From a virus (Duplodnaviria; Heunggongvirae; Uroviricota; Caudoviricetes), in IMG/VR virus record IMGVR_UViG_3300028888_000086: DNA of 64,000 nucleotides; one strand, given 5' to 3'. Both the position numbers and the translations under genes were made by a program. Positions 4,886 to 62,259 of this stretch are shown piece by piece (positions within the stretch are counted from its first letter, which is position 1; every line of letters begins with the position of its first letter). The notes under the pieces were generated by a model. The model worked only from the letters and a program-made list of their open reading frames with translations, did no database searches and was not told the origin of the DNA.

Positions 4886-4892
4886 TAATATT

Positions 4893-5260
4893 CCACTAGG
4901 TTCGTTATTCCTAGTGCGTTCTCAGATAATAATATCTTGAACTGCTTATACTTTCATATAAGATTAGACTATATCTTCATCCTTAATTACTTAAGGAGCT
5001 TAGCACTTCCACTAGACTTCTAGTGTACTCTCTTTCGAGATAGTCGTTGGGGTTAAATCTATTATACTGAGTTGGTCAATTCTCAGTTTAATTATATTTA
5101 AATTTAACCTGCTGATTGCCCATTGTTTCATATTAACCTTGTTCATCATAAGTGACCAAACCTACTATAGTTAATCTTTAGGGGATTCCAGCATTTCACT
5201 AAGTGTACATAACATATTACTATGTTACTGCTCAATTTTACACAAAGCATAGAGCATCCC
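4893..5260 (-). mobile_element. group I intron (family 1, no ORF) in rpoB-like gene; boundaries +/-10 nt
   Basis: It separates ...RRIPFINSTDSVRISMG (aligns to SLIPFLEHDDANRALMG) from MKQSIPLV. Minus-strand R element CCCCAACGACUAUCUC at ~5036-5053 and S element GGAUGAAGAUAUAGUCUAAUC at ~4957-4978 are in the right order and spacing. The terminal G precedes exon 2. Confidence 0.7.
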
Positions 5261-6567
5261 ATTGAAATACGAACAGAGTCAGTAGAGTTAATAAATGGAA
5301 TACGTCTGGTTGTTGAAGAAAGTCGATAATCAGGGTGTAAGTCTATTAAATCTATTTCTTCTACATTAACCATTTTTCTTTTCATTCTATATTTTACCTC
5401 TACTTGTCCACTTTCATTAGGCTTTAATATTTTCTTATCATAATCAACAAATTCAGATGCACATACTTTAGAATTCAAATAATCAATATAAGGAATAGTT
5501 ATCTTATTAAATTCTTTATCATATACATCAAACATTACACCATCATCAGTAATATGTGTAGATACTGTTAATGAGTTTTGTTTATTTGTATTATTATTAA
5601 TAGGAGTATCAGCTAAGTCAATAAGATCCGTAAAAGTTGTATTAAAAGCCGTAGTTTCAGGTATTTGAATTTTACTACCTAAACTATCCAAATTTATAGC
5701 ATTGATTCCAGGAGGTACTTGTAAATTACTATCTCCTTTTGATTCACTAGTTCCTTTAAAAAATCTAAAAGCTAAAGTTGTAATAGCTGTAACTTCTTCT
5801 TGAATCTTATTATACTTAGTAAAATAACTAGTAATTCTTCTTCTTGCTGATATATAATTACTTCCATTACTAGATCTAAATAAGAAATTCATAAAACTAG
5901 TATATACACTATCTATCTTCTTATCAACTATCAAGTCCTTTAGTCTATCATCCCCGAAAGCTAAACACTCATCAATAAGCTTTGTAGTAATATATTCTGG
6001 CTTATAATCTAAATCTAACTTAATCTGAAATTTCTTTATTTGTATATCAGTAAGTTTTAGTTGTTCTTTTTTATCACCAGTTAGTTTATCAATGTCTTCA
6101 TACTTAATTTCTATAGCTCTTTCTGAAACACTAGGATTTAATTCATTCTGCCTTTTGATTTTTAATACACCTTTTTTGATATCATATTTTCTATTATAGT
6201 CAAAGTTTATATATTGATCTCCTACATCAGACATACGAATCCTACAGTCAAAATCTCCGTCTAATTTATTTGTTGCAATTCTATAAGCTCCTTCGATAAT
6301 AAAAGCTCCATCAATCTCTTTAGGTATTTCAAAAGTTGCATATTTTATCTCAGGGTTATCATTTAATCTATACGAAATTTCTATTAGGTGAGATGCTGTT
6401 AAACTATTTTCTATATAATAAGCAGCTGGTCTTGGTGGTTGTTCTTTAATAGTATAATCTAAATCTACTATACTATATTTCGTATTAAATGAATCCACCT
6501 TATTAAAAAACCTAGTTACTATAGTTTTAATACCATCTCTTTTTAATAATTCATTGAAATTACTCAT
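5146..6567 (-). CDS. rpoB: RNA polymerase beta subunit, N-terminal exon (true exon end ~5257-5261; ORF tail reads into the intron)
   Basis: IDGAFIIEGAYRIA (GxFIINGxERV), LQVPPGINAINLDSLG (ETPEGPNIGLI), RRIPFINSTDSVRISMG. Confidence 0.85.
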   Translation of the reverse strand: MSNFNELLKRDGIKTIVTRFFNKVDSFNTKYSIVDLDYTIKEQPPRPAAYYIENSLTASHLIEISYRLNDNPEIKYATFEIPKEIDGAFIIEGAYRIATNKLDGDFDCRIRMSDVGDQYINFDYNRKYDIKKGVLKIKRQNELNPSVSERAIEIKYEDIDKLTGDKKEQLKLTDIQIKKFQIKLDLDYKPEYITTKLIDECLAFGDDRLKDLIVDKKIDSVYTSFMNFLFRSSNGSNYISARRRITSYFTKYNKIQEEVTAITTLAFRFFKGTSESKGDSNLQVPPGINAINLDSLGSKIQIPETTAFNTTFTDLIDLADTPINNNTNKQNSLTVSTHITDDGVMFDVYDKEFNKITIPYIDYLNSKVCASEFVDYDKKILKPNESGQVEVKYRMKRKMVNVEEIDLIDLHPDYRLSSTTRRIPFINSTDSVRISMGCSMLCVKLSSNIVICYVHLVKCWNPLKINYSRFGHL

Positions 6568-7147: not shown

Positions 7148-9244
7148 TTAACCTAATTTGTCGTTTACTAACAAACCTAAAATAACTTCTGACATTACGT
7201 CTCCTTGTAATGAAACCTCTCCTTTTAATGCTTTACTAATTGACTTAGAAGCAAAACCATAAGAAAGAGTTGTATAGAATGAGGGCTTATTTAATACTGC
7301 TGATTGAGTTCCTTGATACTCTATTTCCTCTATTTTTGAAGTTTTAGGATTATAAACAACTCTAGTTAATCCAGCAAATAATAACTCAATAAGCTCTTCT
7401 TGCATTGAGTGTAAATCAGTAATGCCAGTTTTTTGGAATCCATCGTCAGTAACTTCATAAAATTGTTTTCTAAAAATGGTATAAACACTATTAATATCCT
7501 TAACTTTATTAAATCTAGCAGCTATATTATCCATTCTAACAACACCATTACATATTCTATCAAATTTCTTTACTTTAGCACCATCTGGGAAATAATATAT
7601 ACATTTAGGATTATATAAATACTCTTCATTATCTATATAAACATGAATATTACCATTTTTATCCTCATCATATTTTATTATTCCATCATTAATAGCATAA
7701 CAGTCTGATACTAAAACATTTTCTTTCTCAAAATATCTTTGTCCATTACTTCCTCTAGCTCTAAGAAGATTAATTAGGCAGTTTAATTTATAGATAGGAG
7801 ATGTTGTATTATAGGCATAACAAACCTCTTCTCCAGCCTTAAACGTACTTTTACCAACAGTCACTAAATTATCTGGACGTGGATATTTTAATTCTGCTCC
7901 ACGAACTTTAAGGTAAATCCACTTACCCTCTTCTCTAAATGTACAATCTTTAGGGGCTATTAAACAACTAGTTAAATCCAGCTTCCTTTCGTGGCCGCCA
8001 TGTTTTAAGCCAAGAGCTGTTTGAGTTGTACTTTCCATAAGAGAAGTACCAAATGAGAGACCTATAGCAGCACCATCAGTAAAATCAAATTTATTTTTAC
8101 CTAATAAGTCTGGAGTTACTACATTTAAATCTCCTTTATTTTTAGTAACTATAGATCTAACTAGCACTAAATCATCTTCAGAAGGTCTAGCGATCGAGGT
8201 AGTTGGAAATACTTTACCATCTACTGTTGTTCTTCCTAATGCTTTATATCTTGGGATTAATAAACCCTGATTATCTAAATCTTCACCATCTCTATATATA
8301 TAGGAATTTAAACAATAGGAAATTTGACGGTTTAACCATCCGCTCGATGGCACACCGCTAACTTTAATAGATTGTAGTGATCTGTTTTCAATACTATGGT
8401 AGATCATATCTTTTTCATTTAATCCAGTTAATAAAGATCCCCTTGTAATAACAGGTTTTTCATCTATACCAGATATAATGAATTGAGGCATGTTTAGAGC
8501 TGAAATACTAGAAATCTTAACTCTTCCTGCTCTATTTAATTCATCTTTTAAATCGTCTGAAAATTTACCCTCAACTTCTTTTTCATAATCAGCATATTTT
8601 TTAGTTAACATAGCTAATTTTTGTTTGTCAGTAAGTTCTTCAGAGTCAGCTATTCTACAAATTTCTTTATAAGTTTCTGTATCCGTGTCTGCGAATAATG
8701 TTTTGAATGAAAATGTTACAACGCCAGCTTGAGTTACGGCTCTTAATGCCAACTTTTGTAATTCACTTCTTTTTTCTACTCCCTGTTCATCTCTATTTAA
8801 GTAAGAAGATAATTTTACAGCAGCTTTAGCATCCATTCTAGTATATGGATCTTTTAATATATTTAATTTATCTATATCAGCATCCAATATCTTAGAAATC
8901 CTTATTTTACCATAGCATGTTGTTTTACTTTTATAATCTTCACTTCCTATCTTTCCAGTAAAAACAATGGGGGTCCCGTATTTTATCTTTTTTTCAACTT
9001 CAACATCCTTTAGTAAATCCTCGTAGCTTGTATAAAAATATTTTGGATTATCTAAGTCATCGGGATTTTCTAAAACAAACTCGGTTAAAACAGCCAAACC
9101 ATTTAAAGTTTCGTGATTAAATGGAAATATTGGCATGTTATTTTTCTTATAAACATTTACATATCTTGGGGACATTTTATTGTAGGTATCTTCTGCTACA
9201 CTTTCATCAACAAGTTGAATCGAAATTTGATCCCCGTCAAAATC
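7148..9244 (-). CDS. rpoC: RNA polymerase beta' subunit exon 3 (starts at DFDGDQ; the track's TTG start at 9256 is intron sequence)
   Basis: DFDGDQISIQLV is the catalytic NADFDGDQMAVH motif; long C-terminal beta' body. Confidence 0.9.
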   Translation of the reverse strand, partial: DFDGDQISIQLVDESVAEDTYNKMSPRYVNVYKKNNMPIFPFNHETLNGLAVLTEFVLENPDDLDNPKYFYTSYEDLLKDVEVEKKIKYGTPIVFTGKIGSEDYKSKTTCYGKIRISKILDADIDKLNILKDPYTRMDAKAAVKLSSYLNRDEQGVEKRSELQKLALRAVTQAGVVTFSFKTLFADTDTETYKEICRIADSEELTDKQKLAMLTKKYADYEKEVEGKFSDDLKDELNRAGRVKISSISALNMPQFIISGIDEKPVITRGSLLTGLNEKDMIYHSIENRSLQSIKVSGVPSSGWLNRQISYCLNSYIYRDGEDLDNQGLLIPRYKALGRTTVDGKVFPTTSIARPSEDDLVLVRSIVTKNKGDLNVVTPDLLGKNKFDFTDGAAIGLSFGTSLMESTTQTALGLKHGGHERKLDLTSCLIAPKDCTFREEGKWIYLKVRGAELKYPRPDNLVTVGKSTFKAGEEVCYAYNTTSPIYKLNCLINLLRARGSNGQRYFEKENVLVSDCYAINDGIIKYDEDKNGNIHVYIDNEEYLYNPKCIYYFPDGAKVKKFDRICNGVVRMDNIAARFNKVKDINSVYTIFRKQFYEVTDDGFQKTGITDLHSMQEELIELLFAGLTRVVYNPKTSKIEEIEYQGTQSAVLNKPSFYTTLSYGFASKSISKALKGEVSLQGDVMSEVILGLLVNDKLG

Positions 9245-10736
9245 CTTGATATTCAAGCAGTTACGTTACTTCTGCCTCGTTCTCTTATGAACTGCTATAT
9301 GTCTCCATATAGAATAGACTATATCTTCATTATTAAATTTCTTAATAATGTTCCGCTTTTCCACTTACGATTTTAGTGTACTCCTGTAAAAGGATAGTCG
9401 TTGAGGAACAATAAACTTATTAGTCAGATAAGTTTTTTATTTCTTTAAATAATTCATCTAGATCTTCATATACTTTATAAGGATACTTGAAATCACTGTC
9501 TGACTTAGTTTTTATAATATTTGAGTAATAGAATACTCGTAAACCATGTTCTAAACAAAGATTTCGTTTATTATCATCCATTTTAACTCTTTCTTCAAAA
9601 GTATATTTTTTATCAAAAAATTCAGTTGGTTTAAAATGTTGTAATCCTTGACACTCTATAACTGCATTAAAGTCGGGTAAGTAAAAATCTACGTGCTGTT
9701 TTCTTTTATACTTTAACCAATCCCAGGTATATTGTTTTATTATATTAATATTATTATCTTTACAATATAATTCAATATCAACTTCTAAAATAAATCTATC
9801 TCCACAACTAGGACATCCACAATTACTTAAATGTATAGATGGTTGCTGCCAAAACGGTCCATGAGAATTACATATTATCTTAACTGGTGTAGTACAATTT
9901 ACGTACTCAACTTCATCATATCCATAAGTATCTTTATGTATTAATTTTGCGCGACGTATAAATTCTTCAGTATTAATATTAACTCCACCATTACACTCTG
10001 AACACCCATGTCCATATAAATGATCATGTGGTCTTTGAGTAAATTCTTTTTTACACCTATTACAAATCAATTTAACTGGTGTATTGATATTTACATAATT
10101 TACTTCACTGTAATCATATTTATCTTCGCCATGTACTTTTTTAGCTGCTTCTATAAAACTTTCTGTTGTGTATTTTTTATATGGACTTGGATTACATTCT
10201 TTACATCCACATCCCTGTAAAATATCAACCGGCTTAATTTCAAAATACCCATGTATATCACAATTTAGTATAACAGGCGTACTACTATTAATATAATTAA
10301 CTTTATTATATCCGTATCTATCTCCATGAATCTCTCTAGCCTTTTCTATAAACTGTTCCTGTGTATATTTTACTCCACCTTTACAGTTAGGACATCCTTG
10401 TCCACAGAGATGATTGTGTGCAGTCTGAATAAATTCATTTCTGCACTTATTACAAATTATAATAACTTTATCTTTACTTGATGTATAATTTACTTTGCTA
10501 TAATCATATTTATTTTCACCATGTACTTTTTTAGATCTTTCTATAAATTCTTCTGTTGTATATTTTTTCATTATAATTTTAGTTTATATAATTTATTTAT
10601 ATTGTTCCTGCTGATTTTCTCTATTTTATGAATTTTTAGGGTAGGTGACTAAATCCTACATTAACCTCCTATCATAAACCTAGCGAGAGTTTCCAGCATT
10701 TAACGGAATTTTAAAACACCAATTTTAAAATATTTT
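9245..10736 (-). mobile_element. group I intron B of rpoC (family 1), ~1.49 kb, carrying a homing-endonuclease ORF in a peripheral loop just upstream of P7
   Basis: R UUCCUCAACGACUAUCC (~9393-9409) and S GAAGAUAUAGUCUAUUC (~9311-9330) lie downstream of the ORF stop. The intron ends ...AUCAAG before GAU UUU GAC. The 5' exon ends in U (GCU). Confidence 0.65.
9420..10571 (-). CDS. intron-encoded homing endonuclease-like protein: 4 tandem Zn-ribbon repeats plus C-terminal Vsr/PD-(D/E)xK-like nuclease domain
   Basis: The repeat YT.E.FIE...K.HG..YDYS.VNY....P..I.C..HG.F.Q.P..HL.G.GCP.C occurs 4 times. The C-terminus has HVDFYLPDFNAVIECQGLQHF (DFYLP..N.AIE..G.QH). Confidence 0.75.
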   Translation of the reverse strand: MKKYTTEEFIERSKKVHGENKYDYSKVNYTSSKDKVIIICNKCRNEFIQTAHNHLCGQGCPNCKGGVKYTQEQFIEKAREIHGDRYGYNKVNYINSSTPVILNCDIHGYFEIKPVDILQGCGCKECNPSPYKKYTTESFIEAAKKVHGEDKYDYSEVNYVNINTPVKLICNRCKKEFTQRPHDHLYGHGCSECNGGVNINTEEFIRRAKLIHKDTYGYDEVEYVNCTTPVKIICNSHGPFWQQPSIHLSNCGCPSCGDRFILEVDIELYCKDNNINIIKQYTWDWLKYKRKQHVDFYLPDFNAVIECQGLQHFKPTEFFDKKYTFEERVKMDDNKRNLCLEHGLRVFYYSNIIKTKSDSDFKYPYKVYEDLDELFKEIKNLSD

Positions 10737-10814
10737 AGCGTTTAATGGACTACATATGGAGATTGGGAATCTAAGTACATAATCACCATCTCCAGGTTCA
10801 TTTAACCTAACTTT
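10737..10814 (-). CDS. rpoC: rpoC mini-exon 2 (78 nt), encoding KVRLNEPGDGDYVLRFPISICSPLNA
   Basis: It encodes exactly the ~26 aa missing between ...RPPTLH (exon 1) and DFDGD (exon 3). It aligns to bacterial [29 protein letters not shown]. It is preceded by G (10815) and ends in U. Confidence 0.7.
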
Positions 10815-11120
10815 CATACAAAACATTGAATATTCCGAAAAATACTTATATTTTCATATAAGACTAGACTATATCATCATCTATATTTCAAGATGGACTG
10901 CGCTTCAAAAATAGGAATTTCACCTATTTCTTACTCCATATAGGATAGTCGTTACACCTTTTTTGATTTATAATTTCAAAACTTGGCTCGGGATTGCCAT
11001 ATTATATTTCTATAACTTAGGTTTCCCCGATAGCAGAGATTTTATTTTCTCCACACCTAGCATTTACTAGTTCACAGTCTTTGCATTATAAGATCGCTCT
11101 TATAAGTCACAAATTTCTTT
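10815..11120 (-). mobile_element. group I intron A of rpoC (family 1, no ORF, ~306 nt)
   Basis: R GGUGUAACGACUAUCC (~10943-10958) and S GAUGAUGAUAUAGUCUAG (~10867-10884) are present. The 5' exon ends CAU (U). The intron ends UGUAUG. Confidence 0.7.
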
Positions 11121-13566: not shown

Positions 13567-13654
13567 GGAGAGGTGCCGAAGTTGGTCATAACGGCCTAGA
13601 CTTGAAATCTTGTGTGTCTTTATAGACCCGTGGGTTCGAATCCCACCCTCTCCG
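13567..13654 (+). tRNA. tRNA-Ser(UGA), class II with long variable arm
   Basis: Acceptor GGAGAGG/CCTCTCC, D-arm GCCG...CGGC, anticodon loop CTTGAAA, T-arm GTGGGTTCGAATCCCAC. Confidence 0.8.
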
Positions 13655-14088: not shown

Positions 14089-14136
14089 CAAAAGAGGTGA
14101 AAAATCCTCTTTTATTTTTCCGTCTATAAATCCTTA

Positions 14137-14154
14137 AAAGCCTTATATATGTAA
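14137..14154 (+). promoter_or_regulatory. promoter-like motif AAAAGCCTTATATATGTA preceding a ~140-nt structured non-coding region
   Basis: Motif family member. It sits immediately after the hairpin AGAGGTGAAAAATCCTCT plus T-run. Confidence 0.5.
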
Positions 14155-14335
14155 TGGAGATCGAGCTAATAGTTAATTCCGATTTTCCGGGGTAAAGACG
14201 CACCCGGCAACAGAAGTGGTCAAATTTATGAAAAGGGAAAGCCTGAGAATGCACCATTACGTTAGACTGTGCAAAAAACTTGGGCTTTCCTAATTTTTTT
14301 TCAAGACTTTTATGTCTTTTTATTTTTTTTCTTGA
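14155..14335 (+). ncRNA. candidate small RNA (promoter to double terminator)
   Basis: No ORF. Stems CCGGGG...CCCGG, GGAAAGCC...GGGCUUUCC plus U8, then AAGACUUUUAUGUCUU plus U-run. Promoter upstream and next gene's promoter downstream. Confidence 0.4.
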
Positions 14336-43162: not shown

Positions 43163-45650
43163 ATGAATAGAAGAATAGTAATTATTGATCCAGAAGAAAC
43201 CCAAGATAGTGTAAAATATTGGGGATTAGGATTAGGAACTGAGATTTATTTAACAGACTCTCTCAGTAAATTAAGCGATCAAGAGTTAAAAAATGGATTA
43301 AGTTTGGGACCTACTGATGCTGCTATGTTAGTCGGTGGAGGTGGATTTAACTTCTTCTTTGAAAAAACTGGTCTTCATGCTGGGATTAGAAGTGAGAACT
43401 GGTTTGATTGTACTAAGTTAGATCGTCTTAGTGTTGAAGGTGGATCTTATGTTAAAGTTCAAGCAGATTTACCAACACTAGAAGAGATTAAGTATTTTAT
43501 GAGTCCTGAATTTACTCAAGATGTAGATTTCTCATGGTTTAAGTCTAAGGTTATTCATGATTTCCAAGGCGCTATGAGATTCTTAGATTGGTTAGATAGT
43601 TTGCCAATGGATGAAGATTTTGCGGCGGATATCGAGGCAAGTGGTTTCCCGATGGATAAATGGTATGAGTGGTCTGGTGTATCAATCTGTAATAAAAACT
43701 TTGGAGGATTTATTAGCTTTACAGATATTAGATTTACTGCAACTAAAGAACAATATGAAGAGTTATTAAAGAAGTTAGGATTCTTTCTTACTAAACGAAT
43801 GAGTCATATTTGGACTTTTAATATGGGTTATGAGTTCCTGGCGTTTCATAGGATGTTAGGAGTAGATCTTTATAATTTATGTGATGCTGGAGTTTATAAT
43901 ATACTTGACGGATACCATAAAGATAAAAAATATAGTTTAAAGTGGACTGCACAGAGAGTAGTAAAAGCAAAAGTCTGGGATACTGAATTTGATTGGATTT
44001 CTGATATAGTTGATTCAATGCTTTATACAGTTGAAGGAAAGTTGAAAAAGGAAAAACATAAAGTGCTAAAAGTAACTCCAGAAAATTATAAATTAACAAA
44101 TGAATGGAAAGCTTTATGTAATAGATATCCTGAATATGTAAATGAATTTGAATCACTTATGTCTATCTATTTTGGAAATCCTTACATGATAATTCCTAGT
44201 GAGATTTTAGGTAAGTATTGTAATTTAGATGCTTTCTATACTTTGATGATACATTTGACTGAAAAACATTTATATACAGATAAAGCTAGAGAAGTATTTT
44301 TAGATAATATGAGATTAGCAACTAGACTTCACTCGTGTGGAATGCCTAAAGATGAAGAATATAGAGCAGCTTATGAACAATACTGTAAAGAGCAATCTGC
44401 ATTTGGAATTACTTATACAGCTATGGCCCGTTGTTTCTATAAGATGGAAAAACATAAAAAACTCATGGCAAATATAGATAAGTATTCAGACGTTGCTAAA
44501 AAAATGCTATATTCAAATAGATTCTTTAATGGTGATCCTATTGCTATTACTAAAGATATCCTAATTAATAATGTAGATGAACTTGATGCTTATGAATTAG
44601 GTTTAAATGAGGGAAAGTTATTAATGGATTATGGACCTGAATTTGCCGAAAAATTTATAGAGTATACAAGAGAAGCTATGGAAGAGTGTGAGATGATTAA
44701 GCTATATAAGAAAACAGGCCAAAAAGTATTAAAAAAGAAAATAGATAATACTGTTGGTGGGAAGAAAAAACTTATACAGGTACTTAGTCAAAAAATCATA
44801 CCTTTAATTGGACTTGATAAAATAAAAATTAATAATAAACATATAGAGCTTGAAAAATATTTATATTATAAAAGAGCTTATGATGAATTAACAAACGTAG
44901 TTAATACTCAATTAGGGGATATCTATCATATTCCTAAAGAAGTATATGCATTTGGTAGAAGAATGGAATTACTTGAATATAATAATTTAATAGTTTCTGA
45001 ATATTTTAAATGTTCTTCACCTATAGAAAACGACGAAATAGCAAAAGAATTAACAGAACTATTTAAACCACAGACTATATTTCTTGCTACCATATTTACG
45101 ATGACTCAGCAACTTCCAAATGCTGAAAAATACTATAGTGAATTAGGTATTAACACAATTGAAGAAGCTTATGAACATTTTATGAGTAATTGGAAAGCTT
45201 ATGCAAATGATGGTATACCTGTAGGACAAACACAATATCCAGAACAAATTTATACAGAGGCAGGTACATTCTATAAAAACATATCTTTAGATCCAGTTAA
45301 AGATGTTTGGACTTCCTTCGATGGATATCATGCAGAGTCCCAATTTTTCAAGTATGTAGATGATCAGTATTTAGAATATGAAAAACCATTTAGTCCAAGT
45401 GATTTAGATAATATTTGGTTCTTTCATAGAAAAATGACAATTAATTATTTAAGATATAAGAAATATGAAAAGATAAGAAGTACGTATTTATGTGGAATGT
45501 TTGAAGCAACTGATAAATGGGTTCTCGAAGATCCTAATAGTCATGTTGTTATTAGAGAATGTGATGAAAATGAACCAGGAGCAATAAAAAAGATGTTTGC
45601 TCATTTCGCTTGTATGGAGAAACAAACAAAGCGCTGGTCATCGGGTGAAA
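43163..45650 (+). CDS. polA: family A DNA polymerase exon 1 (3'-5' exonuclease plus N-terminal polymerase region; exon end approximate, the ORF tail to 45679 reads into the intron)
   Basis: DIEASG (Exo I DxE) and QTKRWSSGE (TGRLSSSDP region). Confidence 0.75.
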
Positions 45651-45894
45651 TGTTAGCCCCTCTATATAGTGATATATAGAGAAAATCCTGAATATGCTGG
45701 AAACTCCTAAAGCTTTATCTACCAAAGTGTGAAAATGATAAAGATATTACAATGGACAATCAGCAGGGATAACTCTGTAAAAAGAGAAGCCCTCAACGAC
45801 TACCAAGGGACATCTAAAATAAAATTAGATGAAGGTATAGTCTAAACCCAAAATAAAATATCTCGAAAGGGAGGGTATCAATTGTATCACACAA
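45651..45894 (+). mobile_element. group I intron 1 of polA (family 1, no ORF; boundaries +/-30 nt)
   Basis: R CCUCAACGACUACC (~45790-45803) and S GAUGAAGGUAUAGUCUAAACCC (~45829-45850) on the plus strand. These are reverse complements of the rpoB/rpoC intron elements. Confidence 0.6.
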
Positions 45895-46529
45895 TAATCT
45901 CAAAATCAGATATAAAAAGTACCATTTGTTCTTATCCAGGACATTTATTAAGTTATTTTGATATAAGTTCAGCGGAGGTAAAGAGTGCTGGATTTATGTC
46001 GAAAGACGAAAACTTAATAAATATGTTTAAAAATAATATTGATGTATATATAGCAACAGCAAAATCGTATCTTCAAGATAGATGGGATACATTAACTAAA
46101 AAAGAGCAAAAAGCATTTAGAAAAACATTTAAAACTGTTACACTTGCACTTATTTACGGGCAGGGCGTTAATGCCCTAGCTAGTAGATTAAACATTACTA
46201 AGCAGGATGCTCAAGCTATTGTAGATCAAGTTTATACTTCTTATCCAAAACTTAGAGAATATATTAAAGAACAACAAGAATATCCATTACATCACAACGG
46301 AAGAGTGCGAACTTTCTTTGGAGATGTTTTGGTTGCAGAAGAATGGAAATATTATTTAAAAGCTACAGATCCATATGAAAAAAAAGCATTAGCCGCTCGA
46401 ATTGGCAGGGCTGGGAGCAACTATCCCATACAAGGTGGCACGAGCCTGGCGATGAGCAGTGGTTTCTTTAACGACCTACGAGTAGCAAAACAAGAAGGTT
46501 GGGATTTAACAAGTTTTATAACGGTCCAT
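45895..46529 (+). CDS. polA: family A DNA polymerase exon 2 (motif A through motif C His)
   Basis: SYFDISSAEVK (DYSQIELR), TLALIYGQGVNALASRL...YTSYPKLREYI (motif B/O-helix region), NYPIQGGTSLAMS, ending ...TVH| at the H of the catalytic VHDE. Confidence 0.8.
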
Positions 46530-46815
46530 AAGTAAAATTGTGGCATACTGAAGTAATTTAGTATGAAAAAGATTGTGAACTCATATATGTGAGGTGTCTA
46601 AGAAAATAAAAAATCTTAGGCTAACGGTAAAAGCTAAGTTAGAAATAATATGCTAATACCGTGCCAAGTCAGAAATGAAAGGTGTAGAGACTATCCTTTA
46701 TGGAGTAGGTTTATAGTGAAATTCTATATTCCGAAGTGCAATCCATCTTGCAATATAGATGATGATATAGTCCAGCTCTAATGGAAACATTAGGAGAAAG
46801 CGGATTCTAATACTT
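46530..46815 (+). mobile_element. group I intron 2 of polA (family 1), inserted inside motif C between His and Asp
   Basis: The 5' exon ends CAU. R GGUGUAGAGACUAUCC (~46678-46693) and S GAUGAUGAUAUAGUCCAGC (~46759-46777) are nearly identical to rpoC intron A. The 3' end is approximate. Confidence 0.6.
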
Positions 46816-47186
46816 GTGATTTTCCAGCAGATAAATTATGGGATATCAGAAAATTTTACGATCATAACTTTACAGATTTTTGCTATGAAATGACAGGAAT
46901 TCAGTTATTGTTTGATATCTTAATTGGAGCGTCATATCAAGATGCATGTGAAGCTAAATCAATAGATGATAATACTGTAGAATTAACGGGTAACGCACGA
47001 TCCCATTTAATGATTATACAAAAACTAAATGAATGTCCTGGTCTAAAATATACTATAGACATGAATATAGATGATATAGTACCAGATTTTGAAACTAATT
47101 GTACAAAAAGATTTATAAAAGAAGCAGGATGTTCGTTTGTTATGGATAATTCAAAATATTCAATCAAGTATACAAGATTGAGTTAA
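46816..47186 (+). CDS. polA: family A DNA polymerase exon 3 (C-terminal tail; contains annotated ORF 46890-47186)
   Basis: The open frame extends upstream of the Met to ~46795 and would begin DDFPAD... after VH, giving VHDD. IIQKLNECPGLKYTIDMNI resembles the Pol I C-terminal IHQLMENCTRLDVPLLVEV. Confidence 0.5.
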
Positions 47187-47227: not shown

Positions 47228-48850
47228 TTATTTGGTTTTATATGTATTAATCTCTTTTATCAGACCCTCTTTATTAGTTATTATTGGCGAAAAATAATTT
47301 GATATGCTATTATTTATAAGTACTTTCTCTTCTTTTCCAGCACCAGATAAATTGGGATCATAATAATAAAGAATTTTTATATTGTGTTGATTACATAAAT
47401 TATACTTTGTTAAATCTCTTTTATACCCTTCATTAAATGCTAGTAAACCTCCAAAATAATCTACTGGAATAAAATGTTGATCTCCATGAGCTTCTATAGC
47501 TATGTTAAAGTCTTCTAAATAAAAATCTAGTTTTAAATTTTTATTATATTTTAGCCACGTAAATGTTTTCTGAAAGTGATATTTTATTTTTAGTTCGTCT
47601 AATATCTCTCTAACTGAGTTTTCTAGCATTGAAATTATTTCATCTACATATACTAATTGTTCAGGAAGTGTTAATGATTTTCGATAAAGAGAATAGTATC
47701 TCTTTTGAAATTCCGATGGATTTTTTATATTATTTGTATTTATAAACTCTTGAAATTCTTGTACAGTATTTATATTATCAATTAATCCATTTGGTAAAAA
47801 TTTTTGTATTCTATTTGGATAGATAACTTTTGAAGTTAGTTTAAGATGTGTTAGCCTACTATAGATATCATTAAATCTTTTTCTAAAATCAGAAGGAGAT
47901 TGTATATTTTCTTTATTTATCAATTCTTGGAAGTCTGTTTCAGAATTGTACTTTTTTAATTCTGAATTAGATTTTGGTCTTAAAGGAAACTCTAATTTTG
48001 AATCCCACTTATTTCTTAGTATTTTAGCATACATAGACATATTAGACCTTCTTATTTCATCTAAATATACTATTTTATTTACTATTATATAATTTTGTAT
48101 ATAATCAAAAGTATATAAATCTAATTCCGAGTTTTGTAATTTTAATTCTGTATATCCAACATCTTCAGATTTTATGCCAAGCTTCCTCATACGTTTATCA
48201 ACTTTAGGGAACCTATTTAACATATCAGCTACATTCTTAATATTATTCTCTTCTATGAATTTCTTGAAGTCTTCAATTGTATTTAATTTCGAAGTATCTA
48301 ACCATCCAGGAAATGTTAATAGTCTATTTCCCTTCTTAAGATATCCAAAGTCCAGTGCCCATTTATACTCAGTTTTATAATTTTCTCGAAAGTCCTTTGG
48401 GCTAGATATATTATTATCGTTAATAAACTTCTGAAATTCTTCTATAGATCTTAATTTATTTTCCCTTTCGTATTTTAATGGATTTTTATATTTTATCTCT
48501 TTAGCTAGATGTTTTCCAACTAATTTTTTATATGTTGAGGGAAATCTGGAATTAAAGTCTGAATAATTCTCTATATTGTTCTCGTCAACAAATTTTTGAA
48601 AGTCTTCTAAATTATTCAGATTTTTATTCGTTTTAAAATCTCTAGTCTTTTCAGTATACACTACATCATCATTGAACTTCAGATATTTAAGTCTACTATG
48701 AACCTTAAGATATCTTTTCTTTAAATCAGAGTTACTTTTTATATTGTTATTCGCAATAAATCTCTGAAAATGATCTAATTCTGTGAAATCTTTTGCATTT
48801 ATTTCATCATTAGATACTCCAATTTTGTCAAAACTTTTTATATTATTCAT
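47228..48850 (-). CDS. homing-endonuclease-like protein: 6 N-terminal ~40-aa repeats plus C-terminal Vsr/PD-(D/E)xK-like nuclease (paralog of the rpoC intron ORF nuclease domain)
   Basis: Repeat (L/I)E(D/E)FQKFI.ENNI....DF..R(F/Y) occurs 6 times. The C-terminus has LKLDFYLEDFNIAIEAHGDQHF. Confidence 0.7.
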   Translation of the reverse strand: MNNIKSFDKIGVSNDEINAKDFTELDHFQRFIANNNIKSNSDLKKRYLKVHSRLKYLKFNDDVVYTEKTRDFKTNKNLNNLEDFQKFVDENNIENYSDFNSRFPSTYKKLVGKHLAKEIKYKNPLKYERENKLRSIEEFQKFINDNNISSPKDFRENYKTEYKWALDFGYLKKGNRLLTFPGWLDTSKLNTIEDFKKFIEENNIKNVADMLNRFPKVDKRMRKLGIKSEDVGYTELKLQNSELDLYTFDYIQNYIIVNKIVYLDEIRRSNMSMYAKILRNKWDSKLEFPLRPKSNSELKKYNSETDFQELINKENIQSPSDFRKRFNDIYSRLTHLKLTSKVIYPNRIQKFLPNGLIDNINTVQEFQEFINTNNIKNPSEFQKRYYSLYRKSLTLPEQLVYVDEIISMLENSVREILDELKIKYHFQKTFTWLKYNKNLKLDFYLEDFNIAIEAHGDQHFIPVDYFGGLLAFNEGYKRDLTKYNLCNQHNIKILYYYDPNLSGAGKEEKVLINNSISNYFSPIITNKEGLIKEINTYKTK

Positions 48851-49178: not shown

Positions 49179-50885
49179 ATGAAGTTTTTGCGCTTTATAA
49201 GTTTGTTTAGCTTTATATATGAGAGAAAAAACTTAATATATATGATAGATAAAGAAACTTTTACTAATGAGATAGAAAAATTAGAAACAACGAAAGAAAA
49301 GGGAGATTATTTTTTAGAAGTATTATCTAAAGAGTTTTTTCCAGAAGAGGAGATTACTTTCTTAGATGGCTCAGGTGATGGAGGAATTGATGCTTATTTT
49401 ACTTGTATCGATGAAAATATAAGTAAATGGTCTATAATACAATCTAAACATGGAAGTTCTTATAAAGGTACTGATTCCATTTGTTGTGATTTTTCTAAAA
49501 TATTTATACACCTAGAAGATAAAGAGTATTATGGAAAAGATAATGTATTTTTATATTTAAGAGATTTTATAAAAGAATCTAGTGAAAAAATAATTATACT
49601 CTATCTTTTAACAGATAATAAAATAAGTGACTCTGAATTAAATTCATTCAAAACAATAAAAAATATATTTTCTGAACGATATAATATTAAATTTGAAGTT
49701 GAAAATTTATATCCTGATCTATTATATGAAAAAACATCTACAGAAAAGATATATAATATTGAATTACCTGGAAATTTTATAAAAGATGATGGATCTGGGG
49801 AACTAGTAGGAAAAGTAAAAATTAGTGATTTATTTAATTTCATGAAGAATTTTAAATCACTAGCTGGCGATATTAAATTATTATATAAATCAAATATTCG
49901 TCTTTACTTATCAAATAAACTAGCAAAAGCCATAGCTAGTACACTTAGTAATGATCCTGATAAATTTTTTGAATATAATAATGGAATAACAATTCTTACT
50001 AATGGAATAAATTATAATGAAAAAGGAGTATTAATTTTATGTAATCCTGATTGTAACAATGGATGTCAAACATCATTGACTATCTATAAATATATTGAAA
50101 ATTCTAAAATAGTTCCTAATTCTAATTTATGTGTTACTATAATTGATATTTCTAAAAAATCAAAAGAAGAAATAGTAAAAATAACAGAATGTAGAAATAA
50201 ACAAACAGCTGTAAAATCTGTTGGAAGTATATTTGTTCTGGATAAAAGAGTTGAGGAAATAAAAAACATACTTAAAAATGATTATGGAAAAATATTACAG
50301 ACTAAAAAAGGAGAATATAGTCCTAAAAAGATCGATTTTGTAGATTTAATGAGTATGTGTTTTTGTATAATTGATGGTACTCCTGGTATAGCTAAATTAA
50401 AAAATGCCGAACACTATAATTCTAAAACAGGTGATGATTTTATAACAAAATTAAAAGATGATAGAGAATTATTATTATTGAGTTATAGATTAGCGGAGAT
50501 TTGTGAATTACTTAATAAAAGATCATATAAATATCGAGTAGAGAGTTTAAGATATGCTCAAATATCAATTCTTTACACAATACTAGAAAAAGCTGTTGGA
50601 TCTGATAAAGGAAAAATGTTAAAAATACTCAATGACAATGATTTATATGATTATTTTATGAAATCAGCTACTGGATTAATCAGAATATATACAGATATTA
50701 AATCAAGGACAAAGGCAAAGTTTTTGTTTGATTATGAGAATGTAGATAATTTAGAAAGATTGAGTAAGTTATTAGATTTAAATACATCTCCAAAATTAAA
50801 TGAATTAATATCTAGTTGGTTTGAATTTACTTATAAAGAAAAAACTGATATTATAGATAAAGTTGAAAAAATATTAAAAAGTTAA
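49179..50885 (+). CDS. AIPR-like abortive-infection / PD-(D/E)xK nuclease-family protein (true start probably the Met of MIDKETF at ~49242, downstream of the promoter motif at 49208-49224)
   Basis: The N-terminus has GSGDGGIDAYFTCIDEN...IIQSKH (D..E.K nuclease-like signature) followed by a long alpha-helical body, matching AIPR architecture. Confidence 0.5.
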   Translation: MKFLRFISLFSFIYERKNLIYMIDKETFTNEIEKLETTKEKGDYFLEVLSKEFFPEEEITFLDGSGDGGIDAYFTCIDENISKWSIIQSKHGSSYKGTDSICCDFSKIFIHLEDKEYYGKDNVFLYLRDFIKESSEKIIILYLLTDNKISDSELNSFKTIKNIFSERYNIKFEVENLYPDLLYEKTSTEKIYNIELPGNFIKDDGSGELVGKVKISDLFNFMKNFKSLAGDIKLLYKSNIRLYLSNKLAKAIASTLSNDPDKFFEYNNGITILTNGINYNEKGVLILCNPDCNNGCQTSLTIYKYIENSKIVPNSNLCVTIIDISKKSKEEIVKITECRNKQTAVKSVGSIFVLDKRVEEIKNILKNDYGKILQTKKGEYSPKKIDFVDLMSMCFCIIDGTPGIAKLKNAEHYNSKTGDDFITKLKDDRELLLLSYRLAEICELLNKRSYKYRVESLRYAQISILYTILEKAVGSDKGKMLKILNDNDLYDYFMKSATGLIRIYTDIKSRTKAKFLFDYENVDNLERLSKLLDLNTSPKLNELISSWFEFTYKEKTDIIDKVEKILKS

Positions 50886-52418: not shown

Positions 52419-55400
52419 ATGAGAAAAAATAATGGAAAAGAAATTATGCCAGAAGAAATGTTAAGAAACTATATGATTTCTAAAGGCGTGGATAAAGCAA
52501 TAGATATAACTATAGAGTGGAATAAAGTAAAAAAGAATTATAACGGAGAGTATTTTATTCCTGATAGTAATTATGTAAAAAAGATTTTTGGTAAAACAAT
52601 ATTTGAATTCCTAAACATGAGTAAAAAAGGTAAAATGAAAAATGCAATGCCTGAGGATATGTTAAGGAATTTAATGATTGAAAACGGTGTTGATAAAGCA
52701 ATAAATATAAAAAATGCATGGAATAAAGTAAAAAAGAATTATAACGGAGAGTATTTTATTCCTGAATCGACATACGTAATAAAAACTTATGGTAAAACAA
52801 TACATCAAATTTTATGTATACCTACATTATCATCTCTTATGCCAGAGGATATGTTAAGGGATTTGATGATTGAAAACGGTGTTGATAAAATAAGAAACAA
52901 TCGAAAAATTTGGGATAAAATAGTGGATAAATATGATGGAGAATATTTTATTCCAAAATCAACAAATGTAAAAAGGGCTTATGGTAAAACAATACATCAA
53001 ATTTTAAATATGTCTTTGATCATGCCTGAGGATATGTTAAGGAATTTAATGATTGAAAACGGTGTTGATAAAGCACAAGATAAATGGAGAGAGTGGAATA
53101 AAGTAAAAAAGAATTACAACGGAGAGTATTTTATCTGTAGCTCTGGAGGTGTAAAAAGAATTTATGGAAAGACTGTATATGAGTTTTTTAATGAATTAGG
53201 ATATTATTTAAAAGAACGAGTTATTAATTTTCTTTCACTCCACATTGAAGACCTAGCTATGATGGATAAACCAGAGCTTCTTCAGTTAGGAATGTTAGGA
53301 GATTTGCCGAAAGAAGAACATAAAAAACTCATTGACTATCCTAAAGGGGAAGAGAAAGTAGGATTTATTAAAGAAATGGTTGAACGTCTAAAAAATCCTA
53401 AAGAAAATCAAGAGGAGGTAGAGACGTTTAATGAATTTCTAAATGAAGATGTTGATAAACCTGAAGAAACAGAGTCTTCTAATAAAGAAGAAACTGAATT
53501 TGAAAAAGGGCTTCATAAAGGATTAGAAATTGTTGAGAATTCTAAATCATATAACTTAGAAAAGCAAATCTCAGATCTTTTTGGTGGATTGAATGCTTTA
53601 GGTAATTTCAAACATAGTGATTTTACTAGTGAGGAAGCAATAGATTATATTGTAAGTTTCGAAATTCAGAAACTTTGGAATATAGTCATCTGCAATCCCA
53701 CCGAAGCTATGAGATTAATTGAAGAACAAATGCTTCAAAGAGGGAGTAGTGAGTTTTTCAGGAAAGTTATTAATGAGTTTATAAGACAGCATAATGAAGT
53801 AATTAATTTTATAATTCCGGATGGTTATTCATTTCCGTTCCAACCAACTTTAATGCAAAAATTGACTGCATTTATGGTTCTAGAAAAAGAACAGACAGCT
53901 AATTGGAGTGAAACTGGTTCGGGAAAAACTTTATCTGGAGTTCTATCATCAAGAGCTATAGATTCAAGAATAACTTTTGTAATAGCCGTAAACTCAACTA
54001 TAAATAACTGGACAGATGATGCTATTAAAAAAGCTTATCCAGACAGTAAAGTTTATAGAAAGAGTAATATAACAGATACTACAATTTTAGATAGAAATTT
54101 TCATAATTACGTAGTAGTTAATTATGAGGAGTTCCAAAATTCTAATAAATTCTTGAATAAATGGAAACCGTTCTTGATAAATAATAAAGTAGATTTTGTT
54201 ATCTTAGATGAAATTCAAAAAGTAAAAGCGAATAGTCGAGATAGCATGACTAACCGAAGAATAGTCATAGAAAATCTACTACAAGAGATAGACAAGAAAT
54301 GTGGTCGTGATTTAGAAAAAGAAGGTCGTAAAGTACCTATTCTTGCTCTATCTGCTACTCCTGTGATCAATAGTGTTAATGAGGGATTATCTATTATATC
54401 TCTCTTAAGGGGGATAGATTATACTAGTAAAAGAAATACTAGAAAGTCTGCATTAGCTTGTCATTTTGATATAGTTAAAATGGGCTTAAGACTAGTTGAA
54501 GAATCTCCTGCTATTGAGAAGTTAATTACATTCCCAATAAAAAGGGATATAAAAGATATTTCTGGAATTAATATAAAAGGAAATAAAAACTTCTTAGTCG
54601 CTATTGATGTTTGTGGTTGCTTGATTAAAATTGGAGAGTGCATCAGAAGAGGATATTTACAGCCAGGAATTCCTACTGTAATTTATACTGAATTAGTTAC
54701 TGATGTTATTGATCCTATTATTGGATTTCTTCAAGCAAACAATTTCAGAGTTGGTGAATTTACTGGTAGAAATGAAAGTACAAGAGAGATAATAAAAGAA
54801 GGTTTTATTGCAGGTAAATATGATGTATTAATTGCATCTAAACCAATTACAACTGGTGTAAATGGATTACAGAAAGTATGCAATAGGATTATTCCGATAG
54901 TTCTCCCGTGGACTTATGCAGAATATCATCAACTTATTGGAAGATTAAATCGTAAAGGAACTATATTTGATGAAGTACAGGTTATAATACCTACCATCGA
55001 GTATACTAATTCCGACAATGAAGTTTGGTCGCTTGATAATAATAGATTAGCTAGAATACATTATAAACAAATATTAGCTGATGTTATTATGACTGGAAAT
55101 ATTCCTGATGATATAATAACTACAGAACAAGCTTATAAATTAGCTAAAGATAAATTTCTTACCTTTATAAATAATGAAGGAGGTAGTGAAAAATCTAGGG
55201 AAATTCCAGTACAAGCAGCTGAACTTAAACCTGCACCACCTAAAGCAAGACCTGAGGGACAAGGAAATCAGAGAGATTACTTTTCTGAATTTCAAGGTAT
55301 TAATCAAAGAATATCAACCTCAACTTGTGATGGTGTATTTAGTAAGATCTTCAAAAATAAAGAAGATTGGGAAAATTACCACAACTTAAGAGAAAAGGCA

Positions 55401-55847
55401 ATTGGACAAAACCAGCCGCTAAAAATTATATCTCAAGATTTCTTAAAGTCTAAAAAACATAAGATTATTGGAGATATGGGATGTGGTATGAATCAGTTTA
55501 AAACATTATTACCAGAAAACTATGAAGTTATTTCTGTGGATATGTATGCGGCTGATGATACAGTGAAAGTATGTAATCTTATGGATACCTCAAAAATTAT
55601 TCCAAATGAAAGTTTAGATATCGCAGTATATTGTTTATCATTATGGAGTAGAGATTGGAGAGAAATTTTAAAAGATGCATACAGAATTTTAGATTATGAT
55701 GGAAAGATTATAATAGTTGAACCTGTTAGCTCATCATCGAAAAGTATTGATAAAATGAGACAAACCTTAATTGAAAATGGATTTACAAACATTTCAACAA
55801 CTAAGGATGGAGAAGATAAATTCTATTATATGACAGCCAATAAATAA
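52419..55847 (+). CDS. giant multidomain protein: 4 N-terminal ~55-aa repeats, then SF2 helicase, then C-terminal class I SAM-dependent methyltransferase
   Basis: Repeat MPEDMLRNLMIENGVDKA...WNKVKKNYNGEYFIP...YGKTI occurs 4 times. Helicase motifs GSGKT, ILDEIQ, LSATP, TTGVNGLQ. MTase motifs IIGDMGCGMN (motif I) and IIIVEP (motif IV region). Confidence 0.75.
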   Translation: MRKNNGKEIMPEEMLRNYMISKGVDKAIDITIEWNKVKKNYNGEYFIPDSNYVKKIFGKTIFEFLNMSKKGKMKNAMPEDMLRNLMIENGVDKAINIKNAWNKVKKNYNGEYFIPESTYVIKTYGKTIHQILCIPTLSSLMPEDMLRDLMIENGVDKIRNNRKIWDKIVDKYDGEYFIPKSTNVKRAYGKTIHQILNMSLIMPEDMLRNLMIENGVDKAQDKWREWNKVKKNYNGEYFICSSGGVKRIYGKTVYEFFNELGYYLKERVINFLSLHIEDLAMMDKPELLQLGMLGDLPKEEHKKLIDYPKGEEKVGFIKEMVERLKNPKENQEEVETFNEFLNEDVDKPEETESSNKEETEFEKGLHKGLEIVENSKSYNLEKQISDLFGGLNALGNFKHSDFTSEEAIDYIVSFEIQKLWNIVICNPTEAMRLIEEQMLQRGSSEFFRKVINEFIRQHNEVINFIIPDGYSFPFQPTLMQKLTAFMVLEKEQTANWSETGSGKTLSGVLSSRAIDSRITFVIAVNSTINNWTDDAIKKAYPDSKVYRKSNITDTTILDRNFHNYVVVNYEEFQNSNKFLNKWKPFLINNKVDFVILDEIQKVKANSRDSMTNRRIVIENLLQEIDKKCGRDLEKEGRKVPILALSATPVINSVNEGLSIISLLRGIDYTSKRNTRKSALACHFDIVKMGLRLVEESPAIEKLITFPIKRDIKDISGINIKGNKNFLVAIDVCGCLIKIGECIRRGYLQPGIPTVIYTELVTDVIDPIIGFLQANNFRVGEFTGRNESTREIIKEGFIAGKYDVLIASKPITTGVNGLQKVCNRIIPIVLPWTYAEYHQLIGRLNRKGTIFDEVQVIIPTIEYTNSDNEVWSLDNNRLARIHYKQILADVIMTGNIPDDIITTEQAYKLAKDKFLTFINNEGGSEKSREIPVQAAELKPAPPKARPEGQGNQRDYFSEFQGINQRISTSTCDGVFSKIFKNKEDWENYHNLREKAIGQNQPLKIISQDFLKSKKHKIIGDMGCGMNQFKTLLPENYEVISVDMYAADDTVKVCNLMDTSKIIPNESLDIAVYCLSLWSRDWREILKDAYRILDYDGKIIIVEPVSSSSKSIDKMRQTLIENGFTNISTTKDGEDKFYYMTANK

Positions 55848-61774: not shown

Positions 61775-61848
61775 TCGGAACGAAAGGATTTGAACCTTCG
61801 ACATCTTGGTCCCAAACCAAGCATTCTACCGAGCTGAATTACGTTCCG
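61775..61848 (-). tRNA. tRNA-Pro(UGG)
   Basis: Acceptor CGGAACG/CGTTCCG, anticodon arm CTTGG TTTGGGA CCAAG, T-arm GAAGGTTCAAATCCTTT. Confidence 0.8.
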
Positions 61849-61876
61849 AAGTTTTTTGTTATTTGTTTTGAAAATG

Positions 61877-61962
61877 CGGAGGCTACTGGGCTCGAACCAG
61901 TGCGTCCTTTCAGACCTACCAGTTTAGCAAACTGGCCCCTTCACCAACTTGGGTAAGCCTCC
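61877..61962 (-). tRNA. tRNA-Ser(GCU), class II
   Basis: Acceptor GGAGGCT/AGCCTCC, anticodon arm CCAGT TTGCTAA ACTGG, long variable arm, T-arm CTGGTTCGAGCCCAG. Confidence 0.8.
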
Positions 61963-61979
61963 ATTTGTTATTTATCTTG

Positions 61980-62052
61980 AGTAGTAGACGGGTCTCGAAC
62001 CCGCGACCTCGAACTTGGAAGGATCGCGCTCTACCAACTGAGCTACTACTAC
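61980..62052 (-). tRNA. tRNA-Gly(UCC)
   Basis: Acceptor GTAGTAG/CTACTAC, D-arm GCTCAGTTGGTAGAGC, anticodon loop CTTCCAA, T-arm GCGGGTTCGAGACCCGT. Confidence 0.75.
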
Positions 62053-62078
62053 TTGTTATATTTATGATGTGAAACTTT

Positions 62079-62162
62079 TTACAAATAGTAGAAGTGGGTG
62101 GATTCGAACCACCGAACCTATAAAGGAGCGGATTTACAGTCCGCCGCAATTGACCAACTATG
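62079..62162 (-). tRNA. tRNA-Tyr(GUA), bacterial-type with long variable arm
   Basis: Acceptor AGAGGTG/CACTTCT (one G.U), anticodon arm GCGGA CTGTAAA TCCGC, T-arm GGTGGTTCGAATCCACC. Confidence 0.75.
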
Positions 62163-62259
62163 CGACACCTCTACAATCACCAACTATAAGGATTTCAAGG
62201 CTTTCAAACTGCAATAAATAAAATATAAAATAAAGGGATAGAATAAATCCCTTTATCAA

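Follow-up and report, generated by a model that had tools for sequence, protein, structure and literature searches.

The PolA genes of phages are interrupted at sites 674 (SPO1, SP82, Bastille and Pf-WMP3), 676 (phiL7) and 881 (PhiI and W31) in Escherichia coli numbering (PMC3428280). The polymerase introns of SPO1-type phages and of Bastillevirinae self-splice in experiments (PMC3428280, PMC11878797), and splicing has been demonstrated in Bastillevirinae for PolA genes that hold two or three of them (PMC11878797). Jug gut jumbo phages, whose genomes measure 360-402 kb, carry ∼18.5 group I introns per genome, which are short (∼206 nt) and lie in essential genes; metatranscriptome reads support splicing for 37 of the 76 predicted introns, and the same phages have split DNA polymerase genes and many free-standing homing endonucleases (PMC12880540). 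The intron-rich trend is the same in crAss-like phages (PMC7886860), and Jug and intron-rich crAss-like phages alike are large and low in GC (27-30%) and use the standard genetic code (PMC12880540, PMC7886860). Here we describe a polymerase gene, polA, on the viral record IMGVR_UViG_3300028888_000086, of which we analyzed a stretch of 64,000 nucleotides (the window). Positions 43163-47186 (+ strand) very probably constitute a single gene in which two group I introns separate the three exons of a 1170-aa family A DNA polymerase.

This is an ordinary case, as phage PolA genes with several introns and gut jumbo phages rich in introns have already been published, and it changes no concept. In the established Klenow numbering, H881-D882-E883 is the motif C triplet, which makes site 881 the motif C His. 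It is after this residue, the His of "VHD", that intron 2 of the window inserts, and at the level of the residue its position is one already reported for the T7-like phages PhiI and W31. The PhiI and W31 introns reportedly hold an open reading frame (ORF) for an HNH homing endonuclease, whereas intron 2 of the window is ORF-less and interrupts the gene for a very divergent 1170-aa polymerase in a gut jumbo phage. Intron 1 resembles the group I introns of SPO1, SP82, Bastille and Pf-WMP3 (674) and of phiL7 (676), which lie in the TGRLSS-PNLQNIP region, in that it follows RWSSG, the counterpart of the Pol I TGRLSS. The local alignment has a three-residue gap here (RLSSTDPNLQNIP versus RWSSG---YHTII), and the intron 1 site coincides with the 672-676 hot spot only within the alignment uncertainty. 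In very distant PolA lineages, introns recur at the His|Asp junction of motif C and in the RWSS/TGRLSS region, and this locus is a further example. Introns of the SPO1 type and of Bastillevirinae differ in that most of them hold genes for HNH or other endonucleases and their mean length is ∼800 nt, while those of the window are ORF-less and only 238 and 273 nt long. The window, in whose 64 kb five or more introns were found, resembles the Jug phages in these as well as in its AT-rich composition (∼27% G+C) and in having PolA homologues on contigs of 340-408 kb, which hints only indirectly at membership of that clade. Its PolA is only 43-50% identical to the polymerases on ∼400-kb IMG/VR contigs, and its closest relative is a 293.7-kb scaffold.

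Exon structure of the polymerase gene

Three + strand ORFs lie in series at 43163-45679, 45882-46535 and 46890-47186, and the frame of the third stays open upstream to 46794. An initial annotation, made from the letters alone, had noticed this open frame (to ∼46795) and had proposed that a family A polymerase is encoded here by three exons, which two group I introns keep apart, a proposal that the homologue alignment, the Pfam match and the matches to the Rfam group I model given below uphold. A search with a provisional spliced protein found 285 homologues, many of them uninterrupted, 1150-1230 aa long and covering 100% of the query; many others end early, at 70-89% of the query length. When the protein was aligned with 13 uninterrupted homologues, neither join (KRWSSG|YHTIIS and LTSFITVH|DSNTCDFPAD) showed an insertion or deletion. 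Exon 1 is colinear with residues 1-828 of uninterrupted homologues, and the whole spliced protein is colinear, again without insertions or deletions, with 13-21 of those of 1150-1230 aa.

Relatives with empty sites were compared at the level of DNA. The closest relative of the window genome, a 293.7-kb wolf-gut scaffold (L002), lacks intron 1: 45400-45646 (95.5% identical) and 45885-45979 (97.9%) are contiguous there (8481|8482), and intron 1 is therefore exactly the segment between them. Two intron-less sequences, L003 (69% aa identity) and the metagenome contig L141 (74%), read through GTCCAC|GA..., so that 46529 joins 46803, which defines intron 2. The exon boundaries in Table 1 rest on this colinearity together with the alignment of 13 homologues. 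Exon 1 accordingly ends at 45646, its ORF continuing 11 codons into intron 1; exon 2 starts at 45885, as opposed to the TTG of the ORF at 45882, and exon 3 at 46803, as opposed to ∼46795 or the ATG at 46890. The motif C His codon (cat, 46527-46529) closes exon 2, and aag taa come next. The spliced coding sequence of 3513 nt encodes 1170 aa with a single terminal stop. L002 has intron 2 at 93% identity and an extra 271-nt insertion after ...SAEV (8577-8847) that the window does not have. In L001 (96% aa identity), intron 1 is accompanied by an insertion of 920 nt (4391-5310) that contains an ORF and interrupts FDI|SSAEV.

Two other ends were tried and rejected. An intron 1 that ended at G45869 would give RWSSG-GGYQL-YHTIIS, with five residues that are missing in every homologue, and L002 sets the end at 45884. 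An exon 3 that began at 46794, where the Rfam model match ends and where a G first precedes a position in frame, would add EKA before DSNT, which occurs in no homologue. The exon 3 from ∼46795 that the initial annotation had suggested, restoring VH|DD, is corrected in the same way, as the real start gives VH|DSNTCDFPAD. A scan for promoters and terminators found nothing above chance inside the polA gene.

The spliced protein gave one match to Pfam DNA_pol_A (PF00476), at aa 835-1088, which covers profile positions 138-379 of 381 with 93.7 bits (cut-off 34.3). Exon 2 alone scored 88.1 bits over profile positions 139-307; continuity of the profile had been set beforehand as a test of the gene model, and appending exon 3 extends the match from 307 to 379. 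With the domain above its cut-off and with motifs A, B and C and the catalytic Asp continuous across the joins, the protein belongs to family A. Among the residues invariant in the homologue alignment are those of the exonuclease, D156-x-E158 (DIEASG), N220/E224 and Y352/D356, which agrees with the earlier assignment of exon 1 to the exonuclease domain, and those of the polymerase, D854 (motif A), K911/Y919/G920 (motif B) and H1043-D1044-S1045 (motif C). The top profile matches were 9qhs and 9qli, two recently solved large polymerases that have an RWSS-FHTI motif in common. In alignments to structures of the Protein Data Bank, exon 2 matched motifs A-C of Taq Pol I: in motif A, FDISSAEVK fell opposite LDYSQIELR of Taq, and in motif C, FITVHDSN fell opposite LLQVHDEL. 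Because of the latter, intron 2 separates the motif C His from the catalytic Asp, just as had been read from the letters. The last ∼80 residues lie beyond the end of the PolA profile (aa 1088) and are conserved only in this phage polymerase family. The tail that the initial annotation had quoted as Pol I-like (IIQKLNECPGLKYTIDMNI) falls within this family-specific extension, and the true Pol I-like C-terminus is ...IQLLFDILIGASYQDA.

No second PolA match was found in the scanned ORFs of the 64-kb window. In the GenBank phage collection, neither tblastn with exon 1 nor megablast with 25 kb gave a match; only the introns matched, in Lak-B, Clostridioides and SPbeta-like phages. Gene callers report an 838-aa "exonuclease" ORF and two orphan ORFs where the exon map recovers the full-length enzyme, and the database entries for relatives of this polymerase are shortened in the same way; the use of the map is chiefly in annotating such genes correctly.

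Structure and proposed splicing of the two introns

In short-range scans, the Rfam model RF00028 (Intron_gpI) matched intron 1 over 45637-45865 with 48.0 bits (E 1.1e-10) and intron 2 over 46572-46794 with 52.7 bits (E 4.3e-12), the latter above the gathering score of 50. We accepted intron 1 as group I despite its score because it has a P1 with the U-G wobble at the 5' site, a terminal G and core helices with compensatory changes. The minimum free energies gave z scores of -2.74 for intron 1 and -4.46 for intron 2, and the introns contain only chance ORFs of 38 and 43 aa, respectively.

A copy of intron 1 occurs in L001 (95% identical), and outside L001 its nearest kin are introns of Prevotella Lak-B megaphages (in nrdD, 74%) and of Clostridioides phages. 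Read by eye, the Lak-B copy differs from intron 1 by compensatory changes of both strands in P2, P3, P5a, P8 and P9a; three sequences were informative for covariation. The conserved pattern of the P5a loop and P4 finds 91 stretches in IMG/VR, and the best nhmmer matches lie mostly in nrdD at ...DR(I/V)IG|Y, with other copies in motif B of a conventional PolA and in the genes for an AAA_24/Sak4-like ATPase, a RecA-like P-loop protein and a tape-measure-like protein. For most of the best matches, GGGU closes the 5' exon and faces a GCCC guide that has not changed, and in some copies exon and guide have changed together, as in GCGAU/GUCGC (Clostridioides phages) and GGAU/GUCC (L112). The polA site of the window and the Lak nrdD site have the heptamer AUCGGGU in common and nothing else. 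In Prevotella phage Lak-B1 (L047, 2208-2760), nrdD is interrupted after ...SLYDRIIG by the 74% identical intron, which has a perfect 6-bp P10 (AUUUAA/UUAAAU) and is without annotation in the GenBank record.

We aligned nine members of the intron 2 family: the polA copies of the window and L002, the rpoC intron of the window, and IMG/VR introns at polA sites 913 and 832. In this alignment, 91% of the cells in 62 pairs are paired, and both sides have changed in 28 of the 62 pairs as against 3-8 in slid controls; none of 500 shuffles reached the covariation score. Compensatory changes fall in P2, P3, P4, P6, P6a, P7.2 and P8, with P7 invariant, and P1 changes along with the exon in relatives (UCAU/GUGA and CUAU/GUAG, for example). 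A P10 helix could form between the intron and the start of exon 3 (GAUU/AAUU). The P3 placement given by Rfam, on the 3' strand of the second hairpin, was rejected for this family, since AUUGUG/UGCAAU pairs in nine of nine members and includes two covarying pairs. The two conserved hairpins, which are linked by AAC...GGUGU...GCUA, part the 5' strand of P3 from P4, where the usual J3/4 is 3 nt long, and the Rfam model is unable to place P3 in this layout. We observed the same layout in Bacillus phage phi3T (L140, ∼1243-1640), whose RNA polymerase gene yonO is interrupted by such an intron. A literature search on P3.1/P3.2 elements of group I introns brought up no relevant paper.

Intron 1 has P5a and lacks P7.1/P7.2, and intron 2 has P7.1/P7.2 plus the two hairpins between P3 and P4. 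The two belong to different structural families with only the R/S core (P7, J8/7) in common; the R/S cores that had been seen in both gaps are thus borne out, and a single family for both is not.

For expression of the gene, we propose that one pre-mRNA would span all three exons and that each intron would fold into a P3-P9 catalytic core. Exogenous guanosine would attack after the U of the P1 U-G wobble (45646 and 46529), and the freed 3'-OH would in turn attack after the terminal G (45884 and 46802). Ligation would then yield ...KRWSSG-YHTIIS... and ...ITVH-DSNTC... and restore motif C. On unspliced RNA, translation would end after 11 codons of intron 1 or after 2 codons of intron 2, and polymerase activity would therefore depend on splicing.

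Several points weigh against a spliced three-exon gene. Set beside the core matches, boundaries, colinearity and covariation, which are observed, actual splicing is, like the mobility route, something that we infer. The score of intron 1 is 2 bits under the Rfam gathering score, whole-window Rfam scans missed both polA introns, and an ORF check found inside neither of them an endonuclease gene, by which a homing intron would be recognized. At the chosen 3' site of intron 1, P10 has one U-U mismatch, and the last 12 nt of the intron, in the region 45873-45890 (GGG UAUCAAUUG), repeat UAUCA, the first five bases of exon 2, thereby creating a second 3' site at 45875|45876. Were this site used, always or in part, the product would be RWSSG-YQL-YHTIIS, with three residues inserted. 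Position 45876 is indeed in frame and preceded by G, and the UAUCA after G45875 would allow the same P10 with UGUUA (45651-45655). We nevertheless consider its use very unlikely: no insertion occurs at RWSSG|YHTIIS in any of more than 20 homologues, the element absent from L002 ends exactly at 45884, and G45873-45875 with U45876 pair with ACCC 45846-45849 as P9, a helix kept in the Lak-B copy. The lack of an endonuclease ORF and the score of intron 1 just under the gathering threshold would also suit introns that are decayed, non-splicing remnants, with the gene a pseudogene or its exons encoding separate polypeptides that assemble. That, too, is extremely improbable, because the differences among the window, L002/L001 and more distant copies of the introns keep the helices paired and because both exon frames are intact, at 96% and 84% aa identity to relatives. 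Moreover, a conserved start codon is lacking at the true 5' end of exon 2 and of exon 3, the second break splits adjacent residues of a catalytic motif (H|D), and the scanned ORFs offer no other PolA.

A further alternative concerns the origin of intron 2, which the initial annotation had described as nearly identical over ∼100 nt to intron A of rpoC, implying recent spread. The rpoC intron does belong to the intron 2 family and can be aligned with it over its full length, as a copying from rpoC into polA within this genome would predict. However, BLAST gave an identity of only 75% over 225 nt, and the best 100-column window reached 77%, where more than 95% would be expected of a recent copy; the best 50-column window (89%) covers the P3'-P8-J8/7-P7' core. 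Introns in other phage genomes or at other polA sites are 68-77% identical to intron 2, about as close as the rpoC copy, and the L002 copy at the same polA site is 93% identical to it. The guides also differ (GUGG in polA, GUGA in rpoC), each fitting its own exon. Recent copying is hardly credible on these figures, and the near identity did not hold.

Distribution and mobility of the introns

Close relatives differ in the presence of the introns at the exact sites: intron 1 is in the window and L001 and not in L002, and intron 2 is in the window and L002 and not in L003 or L141. For this reason, we regard the introns as mobile on an evolutionary time scale. When 43 IMG/VR loci were searched by tblastn with the spliced protein, we found uninterrupted polA genes on ∼400-kb contigs and interrupted ones on ∼340-kb contigs, the latter broken at about aa 832, 855/860, 913-917, 1010 and 1043. 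The site-832 intron of the ∼340-kb-contig phages lies 11 nt downstream of the first site of the window, in phase 2, and is of the intron 2 family. Introns 294-314 nt long, from at least three other lineages, fill the VH|DS site in ∼20 loci. The introns at this site in L022 and L046 measure 1.2 kb and contain an ORF of ∼300 aa that has a weak GIY-YIG match (Pfam E 0.04) and no PHROG match, and the site is empty in L019, L029, L031, L039, L004 and L034. With relatives interrupted at at least five sites, the family is a rich natural source of group I ribozymes of very small size. Up to five interruptions were seen in one relative, L046 (5001-12660), near aa 830, 882, 917, 1010 and 1043. Among L046, L027, L001 and L002, insertions are also seen in motif A (after FDI and SAEV) and motif B (after FKT/RKR), and several insertions in the relatives are 0.9-1.9 kb long.

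The spread of ORF-less introns would need recombination, trans-acting free-standing endonucleases or reverse splicing. A homing-endonuclease-like gene at 47228-48850 converges on polA, 41 nt from its stop. Its 540-aa product has N-terminal repeats, and its C-terminal aa 406-494 match phrog_9084 "homing endonuclease" (E 2.6e-15), with a further match to phrog_559 (E 7e-12); L003 has an HNH_3 gene in the same position 3' of polA. The product is a possible trans-acting mobility factor for the polA introns. An ORF-less intron in an essential phage gene, adjoined by a free-standing endonuclease-like gene, recalls collaborative homing (Zeng, Bonocora & Shub 2009; Bonocora & Shub 2009), as that work is cited in PMC3428280, and the parallel may be drawn as an analogy only.

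It is also conceivable, although we consider it rather unlikely, that in these gut jumbo phages the small ORF-less introns move from one essential gene to another, unrelated one by guide-directed reverse splicing and not by endonuclease homing. Relatives of intron 2 occupy at least four sites, all ending in YYAU, and the GGGU/GCCC pattern of the intron 1 family, in most copies the one feature common to the target sites, fits a site choice that depends on the guide sequence; the same pairing is equally required for splicing after any insertion and so is no proof of reverse splicing. If reverse splicing did operate, the conserved Gly and His codons in catalytic motifs would be targeted through their RNA sequence.

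Other features of the window

Table 1. Predicted features of the polA gene, its introns and the remainder of the window
Feature	Position	Strand	Description
polA exon 1	43163..45646	+	828 codons; N-terminal region, 3'-5' exonuclease motifs, thumb/fingers to ...KRWSSG; last codon ggT
Intron 1	45647..45884	+	Group I, 238 nt, ORF-less
polA exon 2	45885..46529	+	215 codons; YHTIIS..., motif A (SYFDISSAEVK), motif B (RKTFKTVTLALIYG), ...NYPIQGGTS...ITVH; ends caT
Intron 2	46530..46802	+	Group I, 273 nt, ORF-less
polA exon 3	46803..47186	+	127 codons + stop; DSNTCDFPAD... with catalytic Asp of motif C, PolA C-terminus ...IQLLFDILIGASYQDA, ∼80-aa extension
Intron 1 P1	45643-45646/45656-45659		Exon GGGU/GCCC; 5' site after U of U-G wobble
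Intron 1 P2	45660-45681		9 bp
Intron 1 P3	45686-45689/45807-45810		
Intron 1 P4	45695-45700/45760-45765		
Intron 1 P5/P5a	45713-45719/45737-45743		Position is that of P5a
Intron 1 P6/P6a	45773-45786		Position is that of P6a
Intron 1 P7	45798-45802/45838-45842		GACUA/UAGUC
Intron 1 P8	45812-45830		
Intron 1 P9	45846-45849/45873-45876		Encloses GAAA-capped hairpin 45861-45872
Intron 1 3' end and stop	45884; 45677-45679		Terminal G; in-frame stop
Intron 2 P1	46526-46531/46538-46543		CCAUAA/UUGUGG; 5' site CCAU/AA, cut after U of U-G wobble
Intron 2 P2	46544-46565		
Intron 2 P3	46572-46577/46737-46742		AUUGUG/UGCAAU
Intron 2 hairpins between P3 and P4	46580-46593 and 46598-46619		
Intron 2 P4	46624-46628/46658-46662		
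Intron 2 P6/P6a	46663-46683		
Intron 2 P7	46689-46693/46768-46772		
Intron 2 P7.1, P7.2	46694-46704; 46708-46732		
Intron 2 P8	46744-46761		
Intron 2 P9	46778-46793		GAAA loop
Intron 2 3' end and stop	46802; 46533-46535		Terminal G; stop
Homing-endonuclease-like gene	47228..48850	-	Free-standing; convergent with polA
AIPR (abortive-infection-type) protein gene	49179-50885	+	PF10592 E 2e-23; downstream of polA
1142-aa helicase fused to Methyltransf_8 domain	52419-55847	+	Downstream of polA
rpoC intron A	10836-11120	-	285 nt, RF00028 69.4 bits
rpoC mini-exon	10737-10835	-	99 nt, EYSMF...SPLNA
rpoC intron B	∼9245-10736	-	Holds homing-endonuclease-like ORF 9420-10571 (phrog_559 E 2e-91, DUF4379)
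Further group I intron	4945-5254	-	RF00028 74.7 bits, E 3e-19
Four clustered tRNA genes	61775-62172	-	
Lone tRNA gene	13567-13654	+	

The detection of the introns by Rfam depended on the length of the range that was scanned. On 64 kb, the gathering scan found none of the five introns and the E-value scan one (that of rpoC); on a 6.6-kb range, none was found, though a 69-bit match lies inside it; and on ranges of 400-1800 nt, all five were found, three of them above the gathering score. We attribute the long-range misses of these AT-rich introns to the speed filters, an artefact and not biology.

The gene for an RNA polymerase beta'-like protein is also in pieces, in the region 9245-11120 (- strand), with an exon that ends ...VIINRPPTLH at 11121. 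Intron B of this gene splits the catalytic NA|DFDGD motif, since the next exon starts DFDGDQISIQ at 9244. A beta-like subunit gene appears to be interrupted too, because the intron at 4945-5254 falls between an Rpb2_6-like ORF (3026-4885) and the ORF at 5146-6567. Lastly, 450 nt downstream of the lone tRNA gene, we observed a weak, sub-threshold match to alpha_tmRNA at 14108-14225 (+ strand; 26.6 bits, where the gathering score is 50).

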